Virus record (IMG/VR): IMGVR_UViG_2718218452_000008
Span: 1 to 38,347 of that record
From: a virus
Taxonomy: Duplodnaviria > Heunggongvirae > Uroviricota > Caudoviricetes
DNA length: 38,347 nt
Strand: one strand, 5' to 3'
Under the pieces are notes generated by a model. That model ran no database searches. It saw nothing but the letters and a program-made list of their open reading frames with translations, and was not told the origin of the DNA. Within the stretch, counting starts at the first letter, position 1, and every line of letters starts with the position of its first letter. Made by a program: the position numbers and the translations under genes. Of the stretch, positions 175 to 7,630 are shown piece by piece.

Positions 175-227
175 GGGCGGCAGAGCAGTCACGGAGTAAA
201 ACTGATACCGCCAAACGTCACCAGAAA
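175..227 (-). ncRNA. dicF: DicF small regulatory RNA (53 nt)
   Basis: Reverse complement of 175-227 reads TTTCTGGTGACGTTTGGCGGTATCAGTTTTACTCCGTGACTGCTCTGCCGCCC, matching the DicF sequence as I recall it, followed by a T-run. It lies downstream of ydfC on the same strand, as in the Qin dicB operon. Confidence 0.8.
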
Positions 228-1676: not shown

Positions 1677-1678
1677 AG

Positions 1679-1746
1679 TTAGCTAATGCTAAATCGTATT
1701 GACTATGTTTTTGTTAACATCTATTTTGTTAGTCATGACTAACAAT
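1679..1746. promoter_or_regulatory. Divergent dicA/dicC promoter-operator region with two dyads
   Basis: TTAGCTAATGCTAA at 1679-1692 (TTAGC-N4-GCTAA arms) and the perfect 20-bp palindrome TTGTTAGTCATGACTAACAA at 1727-1746, in the 83-bp gap between the dicA and dicC starts. Confidence 0.55.
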
Positions 1747-1759
1747 AAAGGTGTTTTAA

Positions 1760-1990
1760 ATGCTTAAAACTGACGCTCTTTTGTATTTCGGTTCAAAAAC
1801 AAAACTTGCACAAGCAGCAGGTATTCGTTTGGCTTCGCTTTATAGCTGGAAAGGGGATTTAGTTCCCGAAGGTCGCGCGATGCGTCTACAGGAGGCATCT
1901 GGCGGGGAGCTTCAGTATGATCCCAAAGTTTATGATGAATATCGTAAGACGAAGCGGGCGGGGCGGTTGAACAATGAAAATCACTCCTGA
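1760..1990 (+). CDS. dicC: DicC, Cro-like regulator (76 aa)
   Basis: MLKTDALLYFGSKTKLAQAAGIRLASLYSWKGDLVPEGRAMRLQEASGGELQYDPKVYDEYRKTKRAGRLNNENHS matches Qin DicC as recalled and is divergent from dicA. Confidence 0.85.
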   Translation: MLKTDALLYFGSKTKLAQAAGIRLASLYSWKGDLVPEGRAMRLQEASGGELQYDPKVYDEYRKTKRAGRLNNENHS

Positions 1991-2495
1991 ACAGGCTCGT
2001 GAGGCTCTGGATGCCTGGATATGTCGACCAGGAATGACACAGGAGCAGGCGACGATATTAATCACTGAAGCATTCTGGGCTTTGAAAGAGCGCCCGAACA
2101 TCGATGTTCAGCGTGTCACAGATGAAGGTGGCGCGGTTGATCAGCGAGCGCTTGGCGTTAATCGAGTGAAGATATTCGAACGCTGGAAGGCTATCGACAC
2201 CAGGGATAAGCGTGAAAAGTTCACGGCGCTAGTGCCTGCGATTATGGAGGCTATCCGGATTAGTGATTTCAGGTTGTATCGTGAGATCAGTGATGGAAAA
2301 AGTATTACGTACATGATCGCCGGGTTAAATAAAGAATATGGCGATGTGGTGGAATCCGGACTGCTTTTTGCAGATCCTGCCGTTGTAGATCGTGAAACTG
2401 ACGAACTTATAGAAAAAGCAATTGCTTTCAAGCTTGCGTATCGACAGCAATACCAACAAAAAGCTGGATGGAATTATGAGTCTTCTTTTTGCTGA
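1974..2495 (+). CDS. YdaT-like protein (CII-analog family of Rac/Qin-type prophages)
   Basis: 173-aa ORF overlapping the dicC 3' end. The motif block VKIFERWKAIDTRDKREKFTALVPAIMEAI resembles K-12 YdaT as recalled. Confidence 0.6.
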   Translation: MKITPEQAREALDAWICRPGMTQEQATILITEAFWALKERPNIDVQRVTDEGGAVDQRALGVNRVKIFERWKAIDTRDKREKFTALVPAIMEAIRISDFRLYREISDGKSITYMIAGLNKEYGDVVESGLLFADPAVVDRETDELIEKAIAFKLAYRQQYQQKAGWNYESSFC

Positions 2496-3441
2496 ACGCC
2501 CACTGGTTATAAACACGCAGCTGGCAATGAAAATTGGCTTAAACGAAGCCATTGTTTTGCAACAACTGCACTACTGGTTGAGAGATACCAACTCCGGCAT
2601 GGAATGTGATGGTGTTCGCTGGATTTATAACACAACGGAACAATGGCTGGAACAGTTCCCATTCTGGTCAGAGTCAACGTTAAAGCGCGCGTTTGCAAGT
2701 CTGAAAACGCTGGGGCTTTTGCGTTGTGAAAAGCTCAATAAATCAAAGCGCGATATGACCAATTTCTACACGATCAACTACGGGAGCGAGCTTTTAGATG
2801 GTGGCAAATTGAGCGAATCCATCGGTTTAAAATGCGCCGCTCCATCAGGTCAAAATGACACGATGGAAGAGGTCAAAATGAAACGCTCCATTGGTTCAAA
2901 ACGACTCAATGTCATCGGGTCAAAATGGCCTGATGATCTTACAGAGAATACAACAGAGATTACTACAGAGAATAAAAAGACTTCTCGTCCGGAAGCTTCG
3001 CAACCGGACCCGCAGACGGTTGAACAGGATTTTTTAACCCGACACCCTGACGCGGTTGTGTTCAGTGCGAAAAAACGCCAGTGGGGCAGCCAGGAAGATT
3101 TGGCGTGTGCGCAGTGGATCTGGGGGCGAATCGTGAGTCTTTACGAGCAGGCCGCCAGCGATGATGGCGAGATTTCGCGACCGAAAGAACCCAACTGGAC
3201 CGCATGGGCCAACGACGTGCGCACAATGCGGATGCTGGATGGCAGAACTCACAGACAAATTTGTGAAATGTTTGGTCGGGTGCAGCGGGATCCATTCTGG
3301 GTAAAAAATATCATGAGTCCGTCAAAGCTTCGCGAAAAATGGGATGAACTGGTTATCCGCCTGGGGCGTTCGTCTGTACAGCGTTGTGTGAATCATATTT
3401 CTGAGCCGGATACCGAAATTCCGCCGGGCTTCAGGGGGTAA
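2476..3441 (+). CDS. Phage replication initiation protein (O-like, N-terminal winged-helix, iteron-containing)
   Basis: N-terminus LLFAERPLVINTQLAMKIGLNEAIVLQQLHYWL... is typical of prophage replication initiators, and the gene contains internal iterons. Start chosen at ATG 2476; the track ORF starts at TTG 2422. Confidence 0.7.
   Translation: MSLLFAERPLVINTQLAMKIGLNEAIVLQQLHYWLRDTNSGMECDGVRWIYNTTEQWLEQFPFWSESTLKRAFASLKTLGLLRCEKLNKSKRDMTNFYTINYGSELLDGGKLSESIGLKCAAPSGQNDTMEEVKMKRSIGSKRLNVIGSKWPDDLTENTTEITTENKKTSRPEASQPDPQTVEQDFLTRHPDAVVFSAKKRQWGSQEDLACAQWIWGRIVSLYEQAASDDGEISRPKEPNWTAWANDVRTMRMLDGRTHRQICEMFGRVQRDPFWVKNIMSPSKLREKWDELVIRLGRSSVQRCVNHISEPDTEIPPGFRG
2824..2929. repeat. Five direct iterons (GGT-C/T-AAAA-T/C-G core) inside the replication initiator gene: candidate origin
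   Basis: Copies start at 2824, 2848, 2871, 2893 and 2918 (spacing 22-25 bp): ggtttaaaatg, ggtcaaaatg, ggtcaaaatg, ggttcaaaacg, ggtcaaaatgg. The arrangement parallels lambda ori inside O. Confidence 0.6.
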
Positions 3442-3481: not shown

Positions 3482-3904
3482 GTGGCAAAAGTTTTTACAC
3501 AAGAAGAGCGGGAAAAAATTAAAGGGCAGGTTGTTGAACTCGTACGCCGGAGTGGGCGTGAGACGTTACGGCAACTGGAAGTCAAGACAGGTGCGACAAG
3601 ATATCTGATGAGCGTTCTCGCAAGAGAGCTGGTTGCCAGCGGCGATGTATACAACTCTGGTTACGGGTTATTCCCGTCTGAACAGGCGCGTAAGGACTGG
3701 CAAAATGCCCGTAAAAAGCTCTCAAGGGCAAAGCTGAAGGAACCATCTGCGGTTGATCCGGACCTTATCTGGTCATTACCTGACGGAGAAATACGTCGCT
3801 ACGACAGGCGTCAGAACATAATCTGTCGCGAGTGCCGGAAGAGTGAAGTTATGCAGCGCATACTAGCATTCTATCAGGGAAATGCTCGATATTTATTGAA
3901 GTGA
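3482..3904 (+). CDS. Hypothetical protein (140 aa)
   Basis: GTG start 5 nt after a strong AGGAGGG Shine-Dalgarno; normal GC; no recognisable motif. Confidence 0.5.
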   Translation: MAKVFTQEEREKIKGQVVELVRRSGRETLRQLEVKTGATRYLMSVLARELVASGDVYNSGYGLFPSEQARKDWQNARKKLSRAKLKEPSAVDPDLIWSLPDGEIRRYDRRQNIICRECRKSEVMQRILAFYQGNARYLLK

Positions 3905-4156
3905 TGAGATTAAAGTTTATTAGTTCAGATATTGATTGGCTCTTTTGTGGAGTAGGGTAGAGTTAGTGTGTTTGTCTGCTTGGTGCCAGCAGCGGATATG
4001 TTTAACAACAGAAAGCATTCAGCATGGTTAGTGGATTTGCAAAGTGGATTAGGATTTGAGAAACTTTGATGAAGTTGTAAAGCTTGTTTCTATAAAAATA
4101 GAAATTTAACTAATAGTTAAACACACCTCCAGCTTCATTGAAAAGGATTATTAGCT

Positions 4157-5056
4157 ATGATTGATCCACTTATTAGAAACTTACAGAGTGATATTGCACT
4201 ACTCCAGCTTTATATCGCGCAACGCAAACAGGCAGGCTTTCATGACATGGAAAGAATAATTGAGTCATTGACCATCTTTATGTTTCGCGCGCTGAAAATG
4301 GGTGAACTGGTAAACATGAATCAGATTAAAGTTAATTTTCCCGCCATTGATTTAGCTGATAATAAAAACATGATAGCAGTTCAAGTTACTACGAATGCAA
4401 GTCCAGCAAAAATTAAAAAAACTATCGAATCTTTTGAGAAAATAAATGAAATAGGAGAGAGTCTGAAAGATAAATACTCTACTTTATATATTTTTGGTTT
4501 TTGTAAAGCCTCAAGATACCTAACTCCAAGTTATTGTAAAATAATCGACCCCAGCTATTTCGTGAATGAACTTTGCGATAAAGCAGATGAAGATATGGTC
4601 CAGGATATGATTGACGCCATTCGACGCCATCATGATTATACATCATTACATCCATGGAGTGATAAAGATTCACTCGAAATTATACTCAATATTATTAATC
4701 GCAATGCAATAAAACATCGGATGAGTTGCGAAGGCAGTCTGTCTGATATGCTCACTGGTTTAAAAGAAATTAATGAAGTAATTACAAAAGGAACAATTCA
4801 ACGTAAGCAACGTTCAAAATCGATATCTGACTTCAAAGATCAAAGCATGGTGAAATTTATGAGAGGTGTAATGGATGATTTGTCTGTTATTCAAGCCATA
4901 GTGAACAAATCTAAAGTTAACCAAGGTGATATGGTTTATATAAGCCATGAAGATATGATTAATATTGATAAATTAAAAGCTAAAATAGCAAGTGATTCAT
5001 CAGAGATTGCAAGGCTAAATAATATTGATATAACACTAAATGTTGTTGATTTATAA
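4157..5056 (+). CDS. Putative SMEK-domain protein (299 aa), low-GC accessory gene
   Basis: The N-terminal region (NFPAIDLADNKNMIAVQVTTNASPAKIKKTIESFEK...LYIFGFCKA) resembles the SMEK domain as I recall it. The gene is strongly AT-rich relative to flanking phage genes and has an AGGA Shine-Dalgarno. Confidence 0.6.
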   Translation: MIDPLIRNLQSDIALLQLYIAQRKQAGFHDMERIIESLTIFMFRALKMGELVNMNQIKVNFPAIDLADNKNMIAVQVTTNASPAKIKKTIESFEKINEIGESLKDKYSTLYIFGFCKASRYLTPSYCKIIDPSYFVNELCDKADEDMVQDMIDAIRRHHDYTSLHPWSDKDSLEIILNIINRNAIKHRMSCEGSLSDMLTGLKEINEVITKGTIQRKQRSKSISDFKDQSMVKFMRGVMDDLSVIQAIVNKSKVNQGDMVYISHEDMINIDKLKAKIASDSSEIARLNNIDITLNVVDL

Positions 5057-5370
5057 TTGTCGATTTAGCAAAACAGAGAATGCTTTGAAAGTTTCACCGA
5101 GAAATATTTATTGTGAACCTCCTTATTGTTTATCGACTTTTACTCTCCGCTCATTGCAGTACTGTCGGAGAAGGCTACTATGTACAAGAAGCAGCTAACA
5201 TAAGCGAGCATCACTATTGATATTAGGAAGAGTATATAAAAACTTCATGCTGAACCTTACAAAAGTAGGTAAACCGGCAATGGCCTAAGTGGCAGGGTCA
5301 TGTTGATCCGGCACTGCCGAGCTAATAATTAACAAGCAAATCACTCTTTCTAATAATTTGTTGAAATAAA

Positions 5371-6024
5371 CTAAATATGTATATGTTTACCAACAACCAC
5401 ATATGAACTACCTGCTTTGCTCCATGATTTTATTATTTCTAAATTATTATCTGAGCATATTTTACTTACAGTATCCACATCTAATAAACCATAGTAGAAA
5501 GCATTGCGAGAGTTTTGGTATATATACCCATGCAAATGTTTAATACCGCTCTCGTACCTCTTGAAATAAGAACTTTTGTATTGATTGACAATCAGTGCTT
5601 CACCATCACTCTTTAATAATTCTCTAATCGCACTGAGGACTTTGTGAATTGTGGATTCACATGGAATTGCGGAAAGCACGTTTGCGCAAAGTATGAAATC
5701 ATAATGATTTGTTATTTTATCTATATTTTCATAAGAAACAATATTAGCATTCTTATAGTTATTTATCACGTAATCTGGAATCGTGGTTTGTACACCTCTG
5801 ATAATTTGCACTCTTTCTAGTTGTCTTCTGGAATCTAAAAATGTCACAGTTTCAAATTTATTTACTAATTGTTCTGAATATCTAAGTTTTCCACATCCAA
5901 AATCAAGGGCATTGCCATTTTTATTAGTGCTTTCAATCTGTTTACAGAGATAGTTAGATGGCATAGTGTGCGGTTTCGCTGCATTTTCTGAACGTATGTT
6001 TATTCCATTTATTTTGTAATTCAA
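5371..6024 (-). CDS. Class I SAM-dependent methyltransferase (about 217 aa), not DNA-MTase-like
   Basis: Motif I ALDFGCGKLRYS, acidic end of beta-2 (VTFLDSRRQ), post-I ILCANVLSAIP, and LLKSDGEALIV. It lacks DPPY/NPPY and PCQ motifs. Probable TTG start at 6024 (GAGG 6 nt upstream) or 6030; starts 13 bp after the membrane-protein stop. Confidence 0.75.
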   Translation of the reverse strand: MNYKINGINIRSENAAKPHTMPSNYLCKQIESTNKNGNALDFGCGKLRYSEQLVNKFETVTFLDSRRQLERVQIIRGVQTTIPDYVINNYKNANIVSYENIDKITNHYDFILCANVLSAIPCESTIHKVLSAIRELLKSDGEALIVNQYKSSYFKRYESGIKHLHGYIYQNSRNAFYYGLLDVDTVSKICSDNNLEIIKSWSKAGSSYVVVGKHIHI

Positions 6025-6036
6025 AATCAACCTCGT

Positions 6037-6732
6037 TTAAAAAATATTGTTATTGTTAAAGAATTCTTTTATTTTGCTATCAGGTATTTGTCTTACTTGG
6101 CTTTCTGTTCTTGGTTTAACTGATGCTATGAAAATAAGGAAGTCAAATGCGACAAGAGAAATAATCCACAACCAAAGATTAATTAAAGAGCCAGTAACAG
6201 AGAATATATTTGTTAATTTGGCGATACTTATTATTAAAATAGTAACAAATGCGATTACTGTATGTTCAAAGAAAACCCAAAAGTAATAAACTTTGTTCCA
6301 GAAAAGTTCAACGTAATGTTTGTCTTTTAACTCTTTAACTTCTGGGTAATACAGTTTACTCATTACCTTGTGAGATTCATCAGTAGTTAATTTTCTCGTA
6401 ACGCCTGCAATTTTTGCTAATGGTTTAATAATTAAATGACTATCCCACATCTTCCTTATTCCAATAATTTTTGCTACATTATTATGTAGATCTAAAGCTC
6501 CACTAATTACTGACCAAAAAACTGAAGATGCAATTGGTAATATGCCAAAGGTTAATATCCATTTAATAAATTCCTCGTAGTCTTTAACGGGGGGGATATA
6601 CTTGGCATTAATGCCAACCAATGGCATGTAGCCATAAATGACTAATGATAGGTAAAATATAAATGTAGTAATAAAAGTCGCCTTATGGAGCATAGGCAAC
6701 ATTTCATTATAACTCTTTGGTGGTTCTAACAT
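6037..6732 (-). CDS. Predicted 4-TM integral membrane protein (231 aa), first gene of a two-gene operon with the methyltransferase
   Basis: Four long hydrophobic segments (ATFITTFIFYLSLVIYGYMPLVGI; FIKWILTFGILPIASSVFWSVISGAL; YYFWVFFEHTVIAFVTILIISIA; LINLWLWIISLVAFDFLIFIASV). ATG at 6732 has GGAG 7 nt upstream. Very AT-rich. Confidence 0.7.
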   Translation of the reverse strand: MLEPPKSYNEMLPMLHKATFITTFIFYLSLVIYGYMPLVGINAKYIPPVKDYEEFIKWILTFGILPIASSVFWSVISGALDLHNNVAKIIGIRKMWDSHLIIKPLAKIAGVTRKLTTDESHKVMSKLYYPEVKELKDKHYVELFWNKVYYFWVFFEHTVIAFVTILIISIAKLTNIFSVTGSLINLWLWIISLVAFDFLIFIASVKPRTESQVRQIPDSKIKEFFNNNNIF

Positions 6733-7173
6733 TTTACTCTCCAAACACTCAAAAAAAAGCTAATCTTCTATAATAACGAAATTCAGCTGGCACAATTAAA
6801 GATTAATTGCCACCAATTTCTTGATTTTATAATTTTATCTAAATGTTTTTGATTAATCTAGTCCTAAAAGAAACCTACTGCATAAATATTTATGCTGATG
6901 ACCCACTCCCTGTTCGTTAACACATAGCAACGTTAGTAATGCATCCTAAGTGATCAATATTTTTGCTAGCTTCATCTGCTCGCTCAAAGGGAACTATAAT
7001 GTTGGCTTGCGTGTGACTTGGCATGTTTAAAGAAGTGCTGGTGGTGACTGGTTGCTGTTTTCCATTTCCACAGAACAAAATCATAGAAACTATACCCAGT
7101 AGTTGTATTGAATCACTGACGAGACAGCCTCATATTTATCAGGACTGGTGTACGTCCAATACAGGAGGTTGTG

Positions 7174-7263
7174 GTGCTGGTTCTCAAATGTGCGCTGGCT
7201 ATTGCTGCTGTAATGGCAATTTATTGTCTTGCTGTTGTTCTTATGGATCACCTTTCTGATTGA
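7174..7263 (+). CDS. Candidate small hydrophobic peptide (29 aa)
   Basis: AGGAGG at 7163-7168 followed by a GTG start, encoding (M)VLVLKCALAIAAVMAIYCLAVVLMDHLSD, a single predicted TM helix. Not in the ORF track (under 60 aa). Confidence 0.3.
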   Translation: MLVLKCALAIAAVMAIYCLAVVLMDHLSD

Positions 7264-7474
7264 TTTCATATTGGCGAGGTAACGGTAGTTAAGTAGAATT
7301 GCTGCGGGTGCTTGAGGCTATCTGCCTCGGGCATCAACACCAAAGGCAGATAGAGAAAAGCCCCAGTTAACATTACGCGTCCGGCAAGACGCTTAACATT
7401 AATCTGAGGCCATATCTATGCTCTACACACGTAGGTTAGCCTCTTACGTGCCGAAAGGCAAGGAGAAGCAGGCT

Positions 7475-7630
7475 ATGAAGCAGCAAAAGGCGATGTTAAT
7501 CGCCCTGATCGTCATCTGTTTAACCGTCATAGTGACGGCACTGGTAACGAGGAAAGACCTCTGCGAGGTACGAATCCGAACCGGCCAGACGGAGGTCGCT
7601 GTCTTCACAGCTTACGAATCTGAGGAGTAA
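7475..7630 (+). CDS. hok: Hok/Gef-family type I toxin (51 aa)
   Basis: MKQQKAMLIALIVICLTVIVTALVTRKDLCEVRIRTGQTEVAVFTAYESEE is the Hok family signature and near-identical to K-12 HokD/RelF as recalled. The track ORF 7418-7630 extends in frame upstream. Confidence 0.85.
   Translation: MKQQKAMLIALIVICLTVIVTALVTRKDLCEVRIRTGQTEVAVFTAYESEE

Follow-up and report, generated by a model that had tools for sequence, protein, structure and literature searches.

How does a lambdoid prophage that carries a probable lambda-like origin inside its initiator gene, and no gene for a helicase loader beside it, bring the replicative helicase to its DNA? The question is raised by a 38,347-nt stretch of viral DNA (IMG/VR record IMGVR_UViG_2718218452_000008, positions 1 to 38,347; the window, hereafter), which is a Qin/mEp460-like lambdoid prophage of E. 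coli. Its replication initiator gene (2476..3441, plus strand) starts with an ATG at 2476 and encodes 321 amino acids (aa), and the same coding sequence is called in phage annotations and by the Prokaryotic Genome Annotation Pipeline (PGAP). The original prediction placed five iterons of a candidate origin within this gene, in the arrangement known from lambda O, and remarked as unusual that no P- or DnaC-like gene follows. It pointed to an adjacent AT-rich unwinding element and to loader homology in a 140-aa open reading frame (ORF) at 3482-3904 as things to look for, and recognized that the repeats might simply encode a repetitive peptide. We find that the five repeats are very probably the iterons of the prophage replication origin, an origin function that is predicted from sequence, and that the likely reason why the module is loader-less is a C-terminal tail of the initiator like that of host DnaT. 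The explanation as a whole, origin and tail mechanism taken together and weighted towards the origin, is in our judgement probable.

The iteron array (2816..2940) is composed of five imperfect palindromes of ~23 bp, and was analysed by repeat search, pattern search and codon shuffles. The repeat search returned a single family with five copies, at 2806-2935, with start-to-start distances of 23, 23, 23 and 24 bp. The cores, located on the plus strand with the pattern GGTYAAAAYG and at most one mismatch, lie at 2825-2834, 2848-2857, 2871-2880, 2894-2903 and 2918-2927. The repeats are thus found where the original prediction had put them, with a core of 10 nt rather than 11 and a spacing of 23-24 bp rather than 22-25 bp. 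The core sequence given there, GGT(C/T)AAAA(T/C)G, holds for three of the copies, while those at 2825 and 2894 begin with GTT, so that the consensus reads G(G/T)T(C/T)AAAA(T/C)G. Off the array, the same pattern search gave 10 scattered matches on both strands in the remaining 76 kb and no second iteron cluster in the window. The centre of the palindromic unit is the middle A of TCAAAATG. Symmetric half-site pairs number 8 of 11 in unit 2, 7 of 11 in unit 4 and 8 of 11 in unit 5, and two example units with 8/11 symmetric pairs are CATCAGGTCAAAATGACACGATG and CATCGGGTCAAAATGGCCTGATG.

Copies 1 to 5 begin in ORF reading frames 1, 0, 2, 1 and 1, respectively. The use of three reading frames indicates that the array is a DNA repeat and not simply a repetitive peptide, although the peptide IG(L/S)K is common to copies 1, 4 and 5. 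To evaluate the array against the coding constraint, ten-mers with at most one mismatch to a real copy and a spacing of 21-25 bp were chained in the gene and in codon shuffles of it. The initiator gene contains a chain of four such ten-mers, and not even a chain of three was obtained in any of 2000 codon shuffles. It should be mentioned that a cruder statistic, the size of the largest repeat family at any spacing, is only marginally unusual, with 6 of 500 codon shuffles reaching four copies; it is for this reason that the phased-chain statistic was needed.

An element of low stability lies next to the array. Three tandem A-rich 12-mers (ACAGAGAnTAnn, 2941..2976), in order ACAGAGAATACA, ACAGAGATTACT and ACAGAGAATAAA, begin twelve bases past the last iteron unit, encode the peptide TENTTEITTENK and are a candidate DNA-unwinding and helicase-entry element. 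Of all 40-mers in the gene, 2939-2978 is the least stable (dG of -44.3 against a gene mean of -55.3 kcal/mol), and the 12-mer region has the lowest GC content of the gene (0.38-0.40) with a strong skew of A over T. An adjacent AT-rich element, as anticipated, is therefore present. The 12-mers hardly vary among 52 close alleles taken from 77 IMG/VR and phage loci: 2 of 36 nt are variable, against 26% in the rest of the gene. At amino acids shared with distant homologues, 45/63 codons (71%) are identical in the 12-mer region, compared with 155/378 (41%) in the C-terminal domain. This higher codon identity suggests that the 12-mer region is under constraint at the level of the DNA itself. A 12-mer of the form ACAGAGAnTACn (peptide TE(N/T)TTEITTE) shows conservation at the DNA level in the window and in the related loci L087, L090, L091, L093 and L096. 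The 12-mer seems to travel with the C-terminal domain and not with the iterons, as the N-terminal domains and iterons around it differ. A single perfect DnaA box (TTWTNCACA) was also noted, TTTTACACA at 3493-3501 on the plus strand, at the start of the downstream DUF977 gene and ~520 bp from the 12-mers; with a rough expectation of ~0.09 matches in the 1.4 kb searched, it is probably a chance match.

The comparison with lambda supports the origin-in-O arrangement in several respects. The four annotated lambda iterons occupy nt 349-433 of the 900-nt O gene, and the five copies described here occupy about nt 341-455 of the 966-nt initiator gene. Both sets are imperfect palindromes about 20-24 bp apart in the middle of an initiator gene, with a TCAAAAYGA centre (TCAAAACGA in lambda, TCAAAATGA here). 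In both, an easily melted A-rich stretch is present on the same side of the iterons, the run ACACAAAAGACACTATTACAAAAGAAAAAAGAAAAG in lambda and the 12-mers here, and the origin DNA encodes an inter-domain linker. The gene order cro, cII-like, initiator is also shared. A lambda-type origin inside an O-family gene is an already known kind of feature.

The likeness extends to part of the protein. The initiator belongs to PHROG 391, 'replication initiation O-like' (E 4.5e-95), with PHROG 277 likewise O-like, and it has no Pfam family at E <= 0.01, including Phage_rep_O, RepA_N (PF06970) and DnaT (PF17948). The AlphaFold2 (AF2) model shows an N-terminal winged helix, a disordered linker, a lambda-O-type C-terminal domain and a DnaT-like tail. 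The winged-helix domain (aa 8-105, 2497..2790, plus strand) is predicted confidently and is presumed to bind the iterons. The linker (aa 109-178, 2800-3009, plus strand), sequence-tolerant and with a predicted local distance difference test (pLDDT) score below 50, spans both DNA elements, the iterons at aa 117-152 and the 12-mers at aa 156-167. The helical C-terminal domain (aa 179-298, 3010..3369, plus strand; pLDDT about 80-96) is homologous to that of lambda O: BLASTP aligned aa 147-294 of the initiator to residues 135-270 of lambda O with 35% identity over 148 aa (E 4e-28). In contrast, similarity between the N-terminal domain and aa 1-134 of lambda O was absent in BLASTP, and the Phage_rep_O domain was not found. 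The lambda type proposed originally is thus correct for the C-terminal domain and does not extend to the DNA-binding domain, which is unrelated in sequence to that of lambda O. Two further differences are that the gene following the initiator is not P but a DUF977 gene, and that a DnaT-like tail stands in place of that of lambda O (..LDLTNTDWIYGVDL).

The fold of the N-terminal domain model is nearest to winged helices of the RepA_N/DnaD-N type, with the initiators of staphylococcal RepA_N plasmids closest. In pSK41, a plasmid of the RepA_N group, the four Rep boxes recognized by the N-terminal domain of Rep lie in the middle of rep, the central segment encoded by the origin is a dispensable linker, and the C-terminal domain makes a host-specific contact (PMC5703833). 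The window initiator resembles this system in having its origin sites in mid-gene, within the linker between the N- and C-terminal domains. It differs from pSK41 Rep and pTZ2162 RepA in lacking PF06970 membership by sequence, and in its C-terminal domain, which is of the lambda O type, whereas that of pSK41 Rep binds DnaG primase. The RepA_N plasmids belong to Gram-positive hosts; the present element is a phage with a gamma-proteobacterial host.

On the analogy of lambda and of the RepA_N plasmids, the working of such an origin can be outlined. Dimers of the N-terminal winged-helix domain would bind the five phased palindromic 23-bp sites, and this binding would bend or wrap the DNA and destabilize the adjacent A-rich 12-mers. 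Rightward early transcription from the 1677-2495 region into the origin would probably help the opening, by analogy with lambda. The host replicative helicase would then be loaded at the opened 12-mers. Both iteron binding by the initiator and unwinding at the 12-mers are inferred.

What would load the helicase is less obvious, since no P- or DnaC-like gene follows the initiator. When the 38-kb window was searched by tblastn with lambda P, a phage primase-helicase and four proteins of the DnaC type (E. coli DnaC, Rac YdaV and two more), all matches had E > 1, and the PGAP annotation of an identical prophage contains no helicase or loader gene. The same loader-less module (YdaT-like, initiator, DUF977, cargo, RusA, Q) is found in PhiR42_1, mEp460_ev081 and HannyBb, and mEp460 is reported to complete lytic and lysogenic cycles (PMC9836094). 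The presence of this module in viable phages implies that it functions without a phage loader and that the prophage has not simply lost one. The early-right regions of SfV and ST64B likewise encode no helicase or loader. The module is also not rare, contrary to the original remark: loader-less modules occur in thousands of enterobacterial prophages, in the viable phages mEp460_ev081, HannyBb, PhiR42_1 and SfV, and in the sequenced ST64B. Weigel and Seitz are said to have classified loader-less phage modules in 2006.

The likely reason lies at the C-terminus of the initiator. Its tail (aa 300-321, SVQRCVNHISEPDTEIPPGFRG, 3373..3438, plus strand) is poorly ordered in the AF2 model, and the last ~20 residues (SEPDTEIPPGFRG) correspond to the invariant stretch at the C-terminus of host DnaT. 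BLASTP of the initiator against DnaT of K-12 found 17 of 32 residues identical (E 2e-8), the two proteins ending in ..VNHISEPDTEIPPGFRG and ..VNTVSEPDSQIPPGFRG, respectively. In a phmmer search against the PDB, the DnaT chains 2ru8, 6aep and 9zbt were the only matches of the initiator, and they fall at its very end. Among NCBIfam models only that of DnaT was matched, over positions 158-179 of 179, with 17 bits against a cut-off of 201. The initiator has at its C-terminus the DnaT tail pattern ..R-D-x-N-x-x-S-E-P-D-x-x-I-P-x-G-F-R-G; the residues invariant in 15 DnaT sequences are R161, D162, S167, D170, I173, P174, G176, F177, R178 and G179. Alignment of the initiator to DnaT profiles with hhalign covered the last 34 columns only (probability 94%, E 9e-8). 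A DnaT-like nature of the whole C-terminal domain, which was also considered, was rejected because hhalign aligned the tail alone; the restriction of the alignment points to a shared terminal peptide and not to a shared domain.

This peptide is not confined to one architecture. The same DnaT-like tail ends many family members with other N-terminal domains, and a longer version of it (..YDNVDYSQIPAGFRG) is present at the C-terminus of the replication proteins from SfII, SfV, ST64B, the cdtI phage, several Stx2 phages and other phages. It is also found on YdaU of the Rac prophage of K-12 (4120-4977 of locus L004), a DUF1376 protein that is otherwise dissimilar to the window initiator and ends in ..VNTVSLPDSAIPPGFRG (..RQVNTVSLPDSAIPPGFRG). 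Rac resembles the window in its context (repressor, YdaS/Cro-like, YdaT, initiator) as well as in the tail. Unlike the window, Rac encodes its own DnaC-like protein, YdaV, directly after YdaU, which mirrors the host dnaT-dnaC operon.

To compare tails with neighbouring genes, a profile of the C-terminal domain (8-sequence alignment) was used to search one GTDB genome per species, which yielded 70 loci (L101-L170). For each locus the C-terminus of the ORF was read and 3 kb downstream were searched with a panel of loaders. All 28 loci that have a lambda-P-like gene downstream carry Trp-acidic tails, such as ..HWNSAEAWENTL and ..IDFDNQDWAEGLQI, which resemble the lambda O tail given above. Tails of the form ..QDYRAGxxxDGxF stand beside a DnaC-like gene in seven Oxalobacteraceae loci (Duganella, Janthinobacterium and another genome). 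GFR-type (DnaT-like) tails occur in 19 loci, of which 17 lack a loader and two have a YdaV-type DnaC-like gene; many of the loader-less ones reach RusA, DUF968 and Q within 4 kb. Counted by loci, the association of tail type with neighbouring gene has p = 9e-7 in Fisher's exact test. Motifs seen in tails beside a lambda-P-like gene are ..WNxxEAWExxL and ..DFDxxxWxEG, and lambda O itself (L100:687-1586) ends in ..TNTDWIYGVDL. In one further locus of the survey, L151 (Shigella flexneri SFBU0723, CP182557.1 4174878-4187308), the initiator copy is broken near its 3' end (..LGRSPVQRCVIIFLNRIQKFHLVSGDKC) and the DnaT-like tail is lost; this copy probably belongs to a decayed prophage.

We propose that the DnaT-like tail would dock the initiator to the same host factor as is contacted by the tail of DnaT itself. 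The most likely partner would be DnaC or the DnaB6-DnaC6 complex, because tail types pair with loader types and because tail-bearing initiators recur beside DnaC paralogues. The host's own loader would in this way do for the phage what P does for lambda. Judged on sequence comparison, the chance that the tail recruits host DnaB-DnaC is about even. As in DnaT, the ~20 C-terminal residues are those in question, with the window initiator acting as a putative adaptor upstream of DnaC-dependent DnaB loading; as in the dnaT-dnaC operon, a tail-bearing initiator is followed by a DnaC paralogue in some prophages. Unlike DnaT, the initiator lacks both the N-terminal domain and the acidic PriB-binding linker of that protein and shows no detectable kinship to its three-helix single-stranded-DNA-binding domain, and its targeting would depend on sequence-specific binding to the origin and not on PriA.

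The literature on DnaT leaves room for such a contact. The C-terminal domain of DnaT contacts PriA and its linker contacts PriB, while no direct contact of DnaC with PriA, PriB or DnaT has been demonstrated (PMC11087952). How the PriA-PriB-DnaT preprimosome recruits DnaB-DnaC is described in the literature as open. For the cryo-electron microscopy model the starting point was the DnaT 84-153 unit (4OU7), and the text of that paper gives no description of residues 154-179.

Several observations count against a role of the tail in loader recruitment. The homology to DnaT is limited to the tail, the globular C-terminal domains being not detectably related. The association between tail and neighbouring gene falls to p ~0.04 after the loci are collapsed to rough lineages, so that it is suggestive and no more. 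In the 70-locus survey, eleven loci with other tails also show no detectable loader. Moreover, the tail-bearing initiators of L096, L109 and L110, and YdaU, have a DnaC-like neighbour, which indicates that the tail is no strict substitute for a loader gene. The published model tentatively assigns DnaB/DnaC recruitment to the N-terminal domain of DnaT.

A different partner may be envisaged, namely that the tail recruits the restart primosome (PriA and/or PriB) and not DnaC. The initiator would open the origin, its mimicry of DnaT would bring PriA-PriB, and host DnaT and DnaC would load DnaB, in parallel to the primosome assembly sites of phiX174 or ColE1-type replicons; the reading of the origin would be unchanged and only the partner would differ. 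PriA and PriB are indeed the known contacts of DnaT, a contact between DnaT and DnaC has never been demonstrated, and the missing phage loader would be explained equally well. However, the unit docked to PriA was modelled from DnaT 84-153, with the tail outside it, and PriB is contacted by the acidic linker, which the phage protein does not have. The loader-type neighbours of tail-bearing initiators (in YdaU-YdaV, L096, L109 and L110) are DnaC paralogues, echoing dnaT-dnaC, and the other tail types in the same protein family track the type of loader. Recruitment of the restart primosome is on this evidence unlikely, though it is the main alternative to recruitment of DnaB-DnaC.

The repeats themselves were also followed in relatives of the initiator, whose protein family is very large: 4317 matches were counted in 90% clusters and, at E <= 0.001, 12,330 among the representatives of 50% clusters. 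The N- and C-terminal domains of the initiator match database entries independently, which indicates that domains have been shuffled in this family. In the genes of ten diverged or domain-swapped relatives, eight have 3-6 direct repeats of their own in the equivalent mid-gene region: GGTCAAATTG in L087, CCCTCATCGA in L090, CAGGTCAAAATGACCC in L093, TCAAAATGAG in L094, GCAAAGCCCA in L096, CGCCGCAAAC in L097, TGGTGCAGGA in L098 and TCAGATTCTG in L099. A clear array was not seen in L091 and L095 with the same repeat search. The spacing is 23-24 bp or a multiple of it in L087, L090, L093, L094, L096, L097 and L098, and L099 has in-frame repeats at 15 and 48 bp. The sequence of the repeats differs where the N-terminal domain differs, as expected if domain and sites co-evolve. 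Six of the ten relatives, among them L096 with its unrelated N-terminal domain, have ACAGAGAnTAC-type 12-mers after the repeats or the linker.

Some findings weigh against the origin. Replication of the fragment and binding of the initiator to the repeats are predictions from sequence. Among the 52 close alleles the iteron cores are not extra-conserved, with 12 of 50 sites variable against 212 of 827 in the rest of the gene, and they are not less variable than the spacers either (12/50 vs 12/53 sites), as would have been expected; a core variation equal to that of the rest of the gene means that no extra purifying selection is visible among close alleles. The first iteron of the window (2825-2834) is off-consensus, with the core GTTTAAAATG, where most close relatives have GTTCAAAATG, which is nearer to the consensus. 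The 12-mers are only moderately AT-rich (GC about 0.33-0.38), and because the peptide they specify is itself conserved, selection on the protein could account for part of their conservation.

These observations could be taken to mean that the repeats are a by-product of the linker peptide, or sites for autoregulation, incompatibility or handcuffing, with the true origin elsewhere. The frame and the IG(L/S)K peptide shared by copies 1, 4 and 5, the equivalent repeats of L098 and L099, which all lie in one frame, and the ordinary variability of the cores would agree with this. It is nevertheless improbable, since the five copies use three reading frames, the 23-24-bp phasing recurs in relatives with unrelated repeat sequences, the array occupies the same place as the proven iterons of lambda, a conserved element of low stability is adjacent, and the window has no other iteron cluster. 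An origin formed by the iterons and the 12-mers remains the preferred reading.

The gene that stands in the position of lambda P/ren (3482..3904, plus strand) encodes the 140-aa protein, which matches Pfam DUF977 (E 2e-30) and PHROG 142, 'Ren-like exclusion protein'. It has no sequence match in NCBIfam, PADLOC or the PDB and no NTPase motif. Its AF2 model, based on a shallow alignment, consists of a confident N-terminal winged helix and a long helix, with a poorly predicted C-terminal half, and Foldseek related it only to generic winged helix-turn-helix folds of the GntR/MarR type (E >= 4e-3). The search for loader homology in this ORF thus revealed a winged helix and no recognizable loader; the protein is unlike any known loader by Pfam, PHROG, PDB and Foldseek, with DciA, G39P and gp59 covered by Pfam and Foldseek only. 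In L096, DUF977 is accompanied by DUF1627 and by a DnaC-like gene; in Rac the DnaC-like YdaV is followed by YdaW, which is DUF1627. In most other loader-less modules DUF977 is absent, and the next gene is a methyltransferase, a ParB-like gene, DUF1627, a transcriptional activator or another gene. Because it has no loader match, coexists with a DnaC-like gene and is replaced by varying genes in other loader-less modules, the DUF977 protein is unlikely to be a loader; it may have an accessory role.

More generally, DUF977 or another small downstream protein could be an unrecognized helicase loader or adaptor, so that the module would comprise an initiator and a loader after all. Small loaders exist, such as G39P of SPP1, the gene directly follows the initiator, where lambda has P, and a small winged-helix protein often follows tail-bearing initiators (DUF977, DUF1627 and one further cluster). 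This is very improbable in view of the lack of loader similarity and of an NTPase motif, the generic fold, the coexistence of DUF977 or DUF1627 with a DnaC-like loader in L096 and Rac, and the different downstream genes among loader-less modules. That the prophage has decayed into a cryptic element, as Qin of K-12 has, and has lost its loader gene, so that the module is non-functional, would fit its Qin immunity region (dicA, dicC, dicB, DicF), the annotation of several structural genes as frameshifted in the identical prophage of strain PE164 and the low-GC cargo island 3' of the DUF977 gene, but it can be dismissed as scarcely credible because isolated or induced phages (PhiR42_1, mEp460_ev081, HannyBb) have the initiator and DUF977 without a loader, hundreds of IMG/VR contigs keep an intact 321-codon ORF, and loader-less tail-bearing modules recur in ~9 lineages as well as in SfV and ST64B.

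With these alternatives weighed, the repeat array alone is one more lambda-type origin in an initiator gene. It is useful for annotation, because the protein, although very common, has no Pfam family and is labelled 'hypothetical' by the NCBI pipeline. Of wider interest are how the module manages without a loader, and the finding that within one protein family the type of tail tracks the neighbouring loader gene, if there is one. We tentatively suggest that initiator tails may form a portable 'loader-selection code', in which Trp-acidic tails would specify lambda-P-type loaders and DnaT-like tails (..D-x-x-I-P-x-G-F-R-G) enterobacterial DnaC or DnaB6-DnaC6. Such a rule would predict whether a temperate phage depends on host DnaC. 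The phage data also single out a peptide of ~20 residues as a candidate in the recruitment of DnaB-DnaC by the preprimosome. If this is true, the invariant tail of DnaT would be the missing contact by which PriA-PriB-DnaT recruits DnaB-DnaC, and this phage, SfV, SfII, mEp460, ST64B and Rac would have copied that tail to initiate without a loader of their own. In the open-access literature we found no description of the chimeric architecture (RepA_N-like N-terminal domain, lambda-O C-terminal domain, DnaT tail) or of a correspondence between tail and loader, and nothing relevant on the tail motif, on DUF977 or on solitary initiators. It is noted that RAST-style annotations already label these proteins 'Primosomal protein I', so the similarity had been noticed by software.

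Over its first 12 kb the window shows 100% identity to prophages that are present in many E. coli chromosomes. In strain PE164, annotated by PGAP, the identical prophage adjoins tRNA-Ser/mtfA, and its early genes are, in order, integrase, DUF4224, exonuclease, ydfD, dicB, ydfC, ydfB, ydfA, dicA, dicC, YdaT-like, the initiator as a 'hypothetical protein' (WP_000054501.1 for ORF 2476-3441), DUF977, a SMEK-domain protein, a methyltransferase, a hypothetical protein, hokD, two hypothetical proteins, DUF968, RusA and Q. Genes for lysis, heads and tails that resemble those of lambda lie 3' of Q. Among sequenced phages, the nearest are PhiR42_1 (95.5% over 2.7 kb), mEp460_ev081 and HannyBb. Upstream of the initiator, the region 1677..2495 (plus strand) comprises a divergent promoter region and two genes, a dicC/cro-like gene (1760-1990, plus strand) and a YdaT/cII-like gene (1974-2495, plus strand), identified by Pfam and PHROG matches and PGAP names. 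The YdaT/cII-like and initiator ORFs overlap by 20 nt (2476-2495). Some database entries are 448-aa YdaT-like/initiator fusions, in which a frameshift or a gene-calling artefact probably joins the ORFs.

Downstream of the replication module, the low-GC cargo island occupies 3905-7300, and related phages hold other genes there. It contains the SMEK-domain protein (4157-5056; PADLOC Aga_REase-PNTD, E 1e-20), an S-adenosylmethionine methyltransferase (5371-6030, minus strand) with a weak mad2 match, and a predicted membrane protein (6037-6744, minus strand), and is possibly an anti-phage defence cassette. Three RNAs score above the Rfam gathering threshold: the small RNA DicF (175-226, minus strand), the sok antitoxin RNA of a hok/sok (hokD-like) locus (7306-7480, plus strand) and the small RNA STnc100 (11796-11968, plus strand). 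Three tRNA genes lie 3' of Q (10776-11025, plus strand), assigned by ARAGORN to Met (CAT), Arg (TCG) and Arg (TCT). The first of them is annotated as tRNA-Ile by PGAP in the identical prophage, presumably as a lysidine-modified CAT anticodon.

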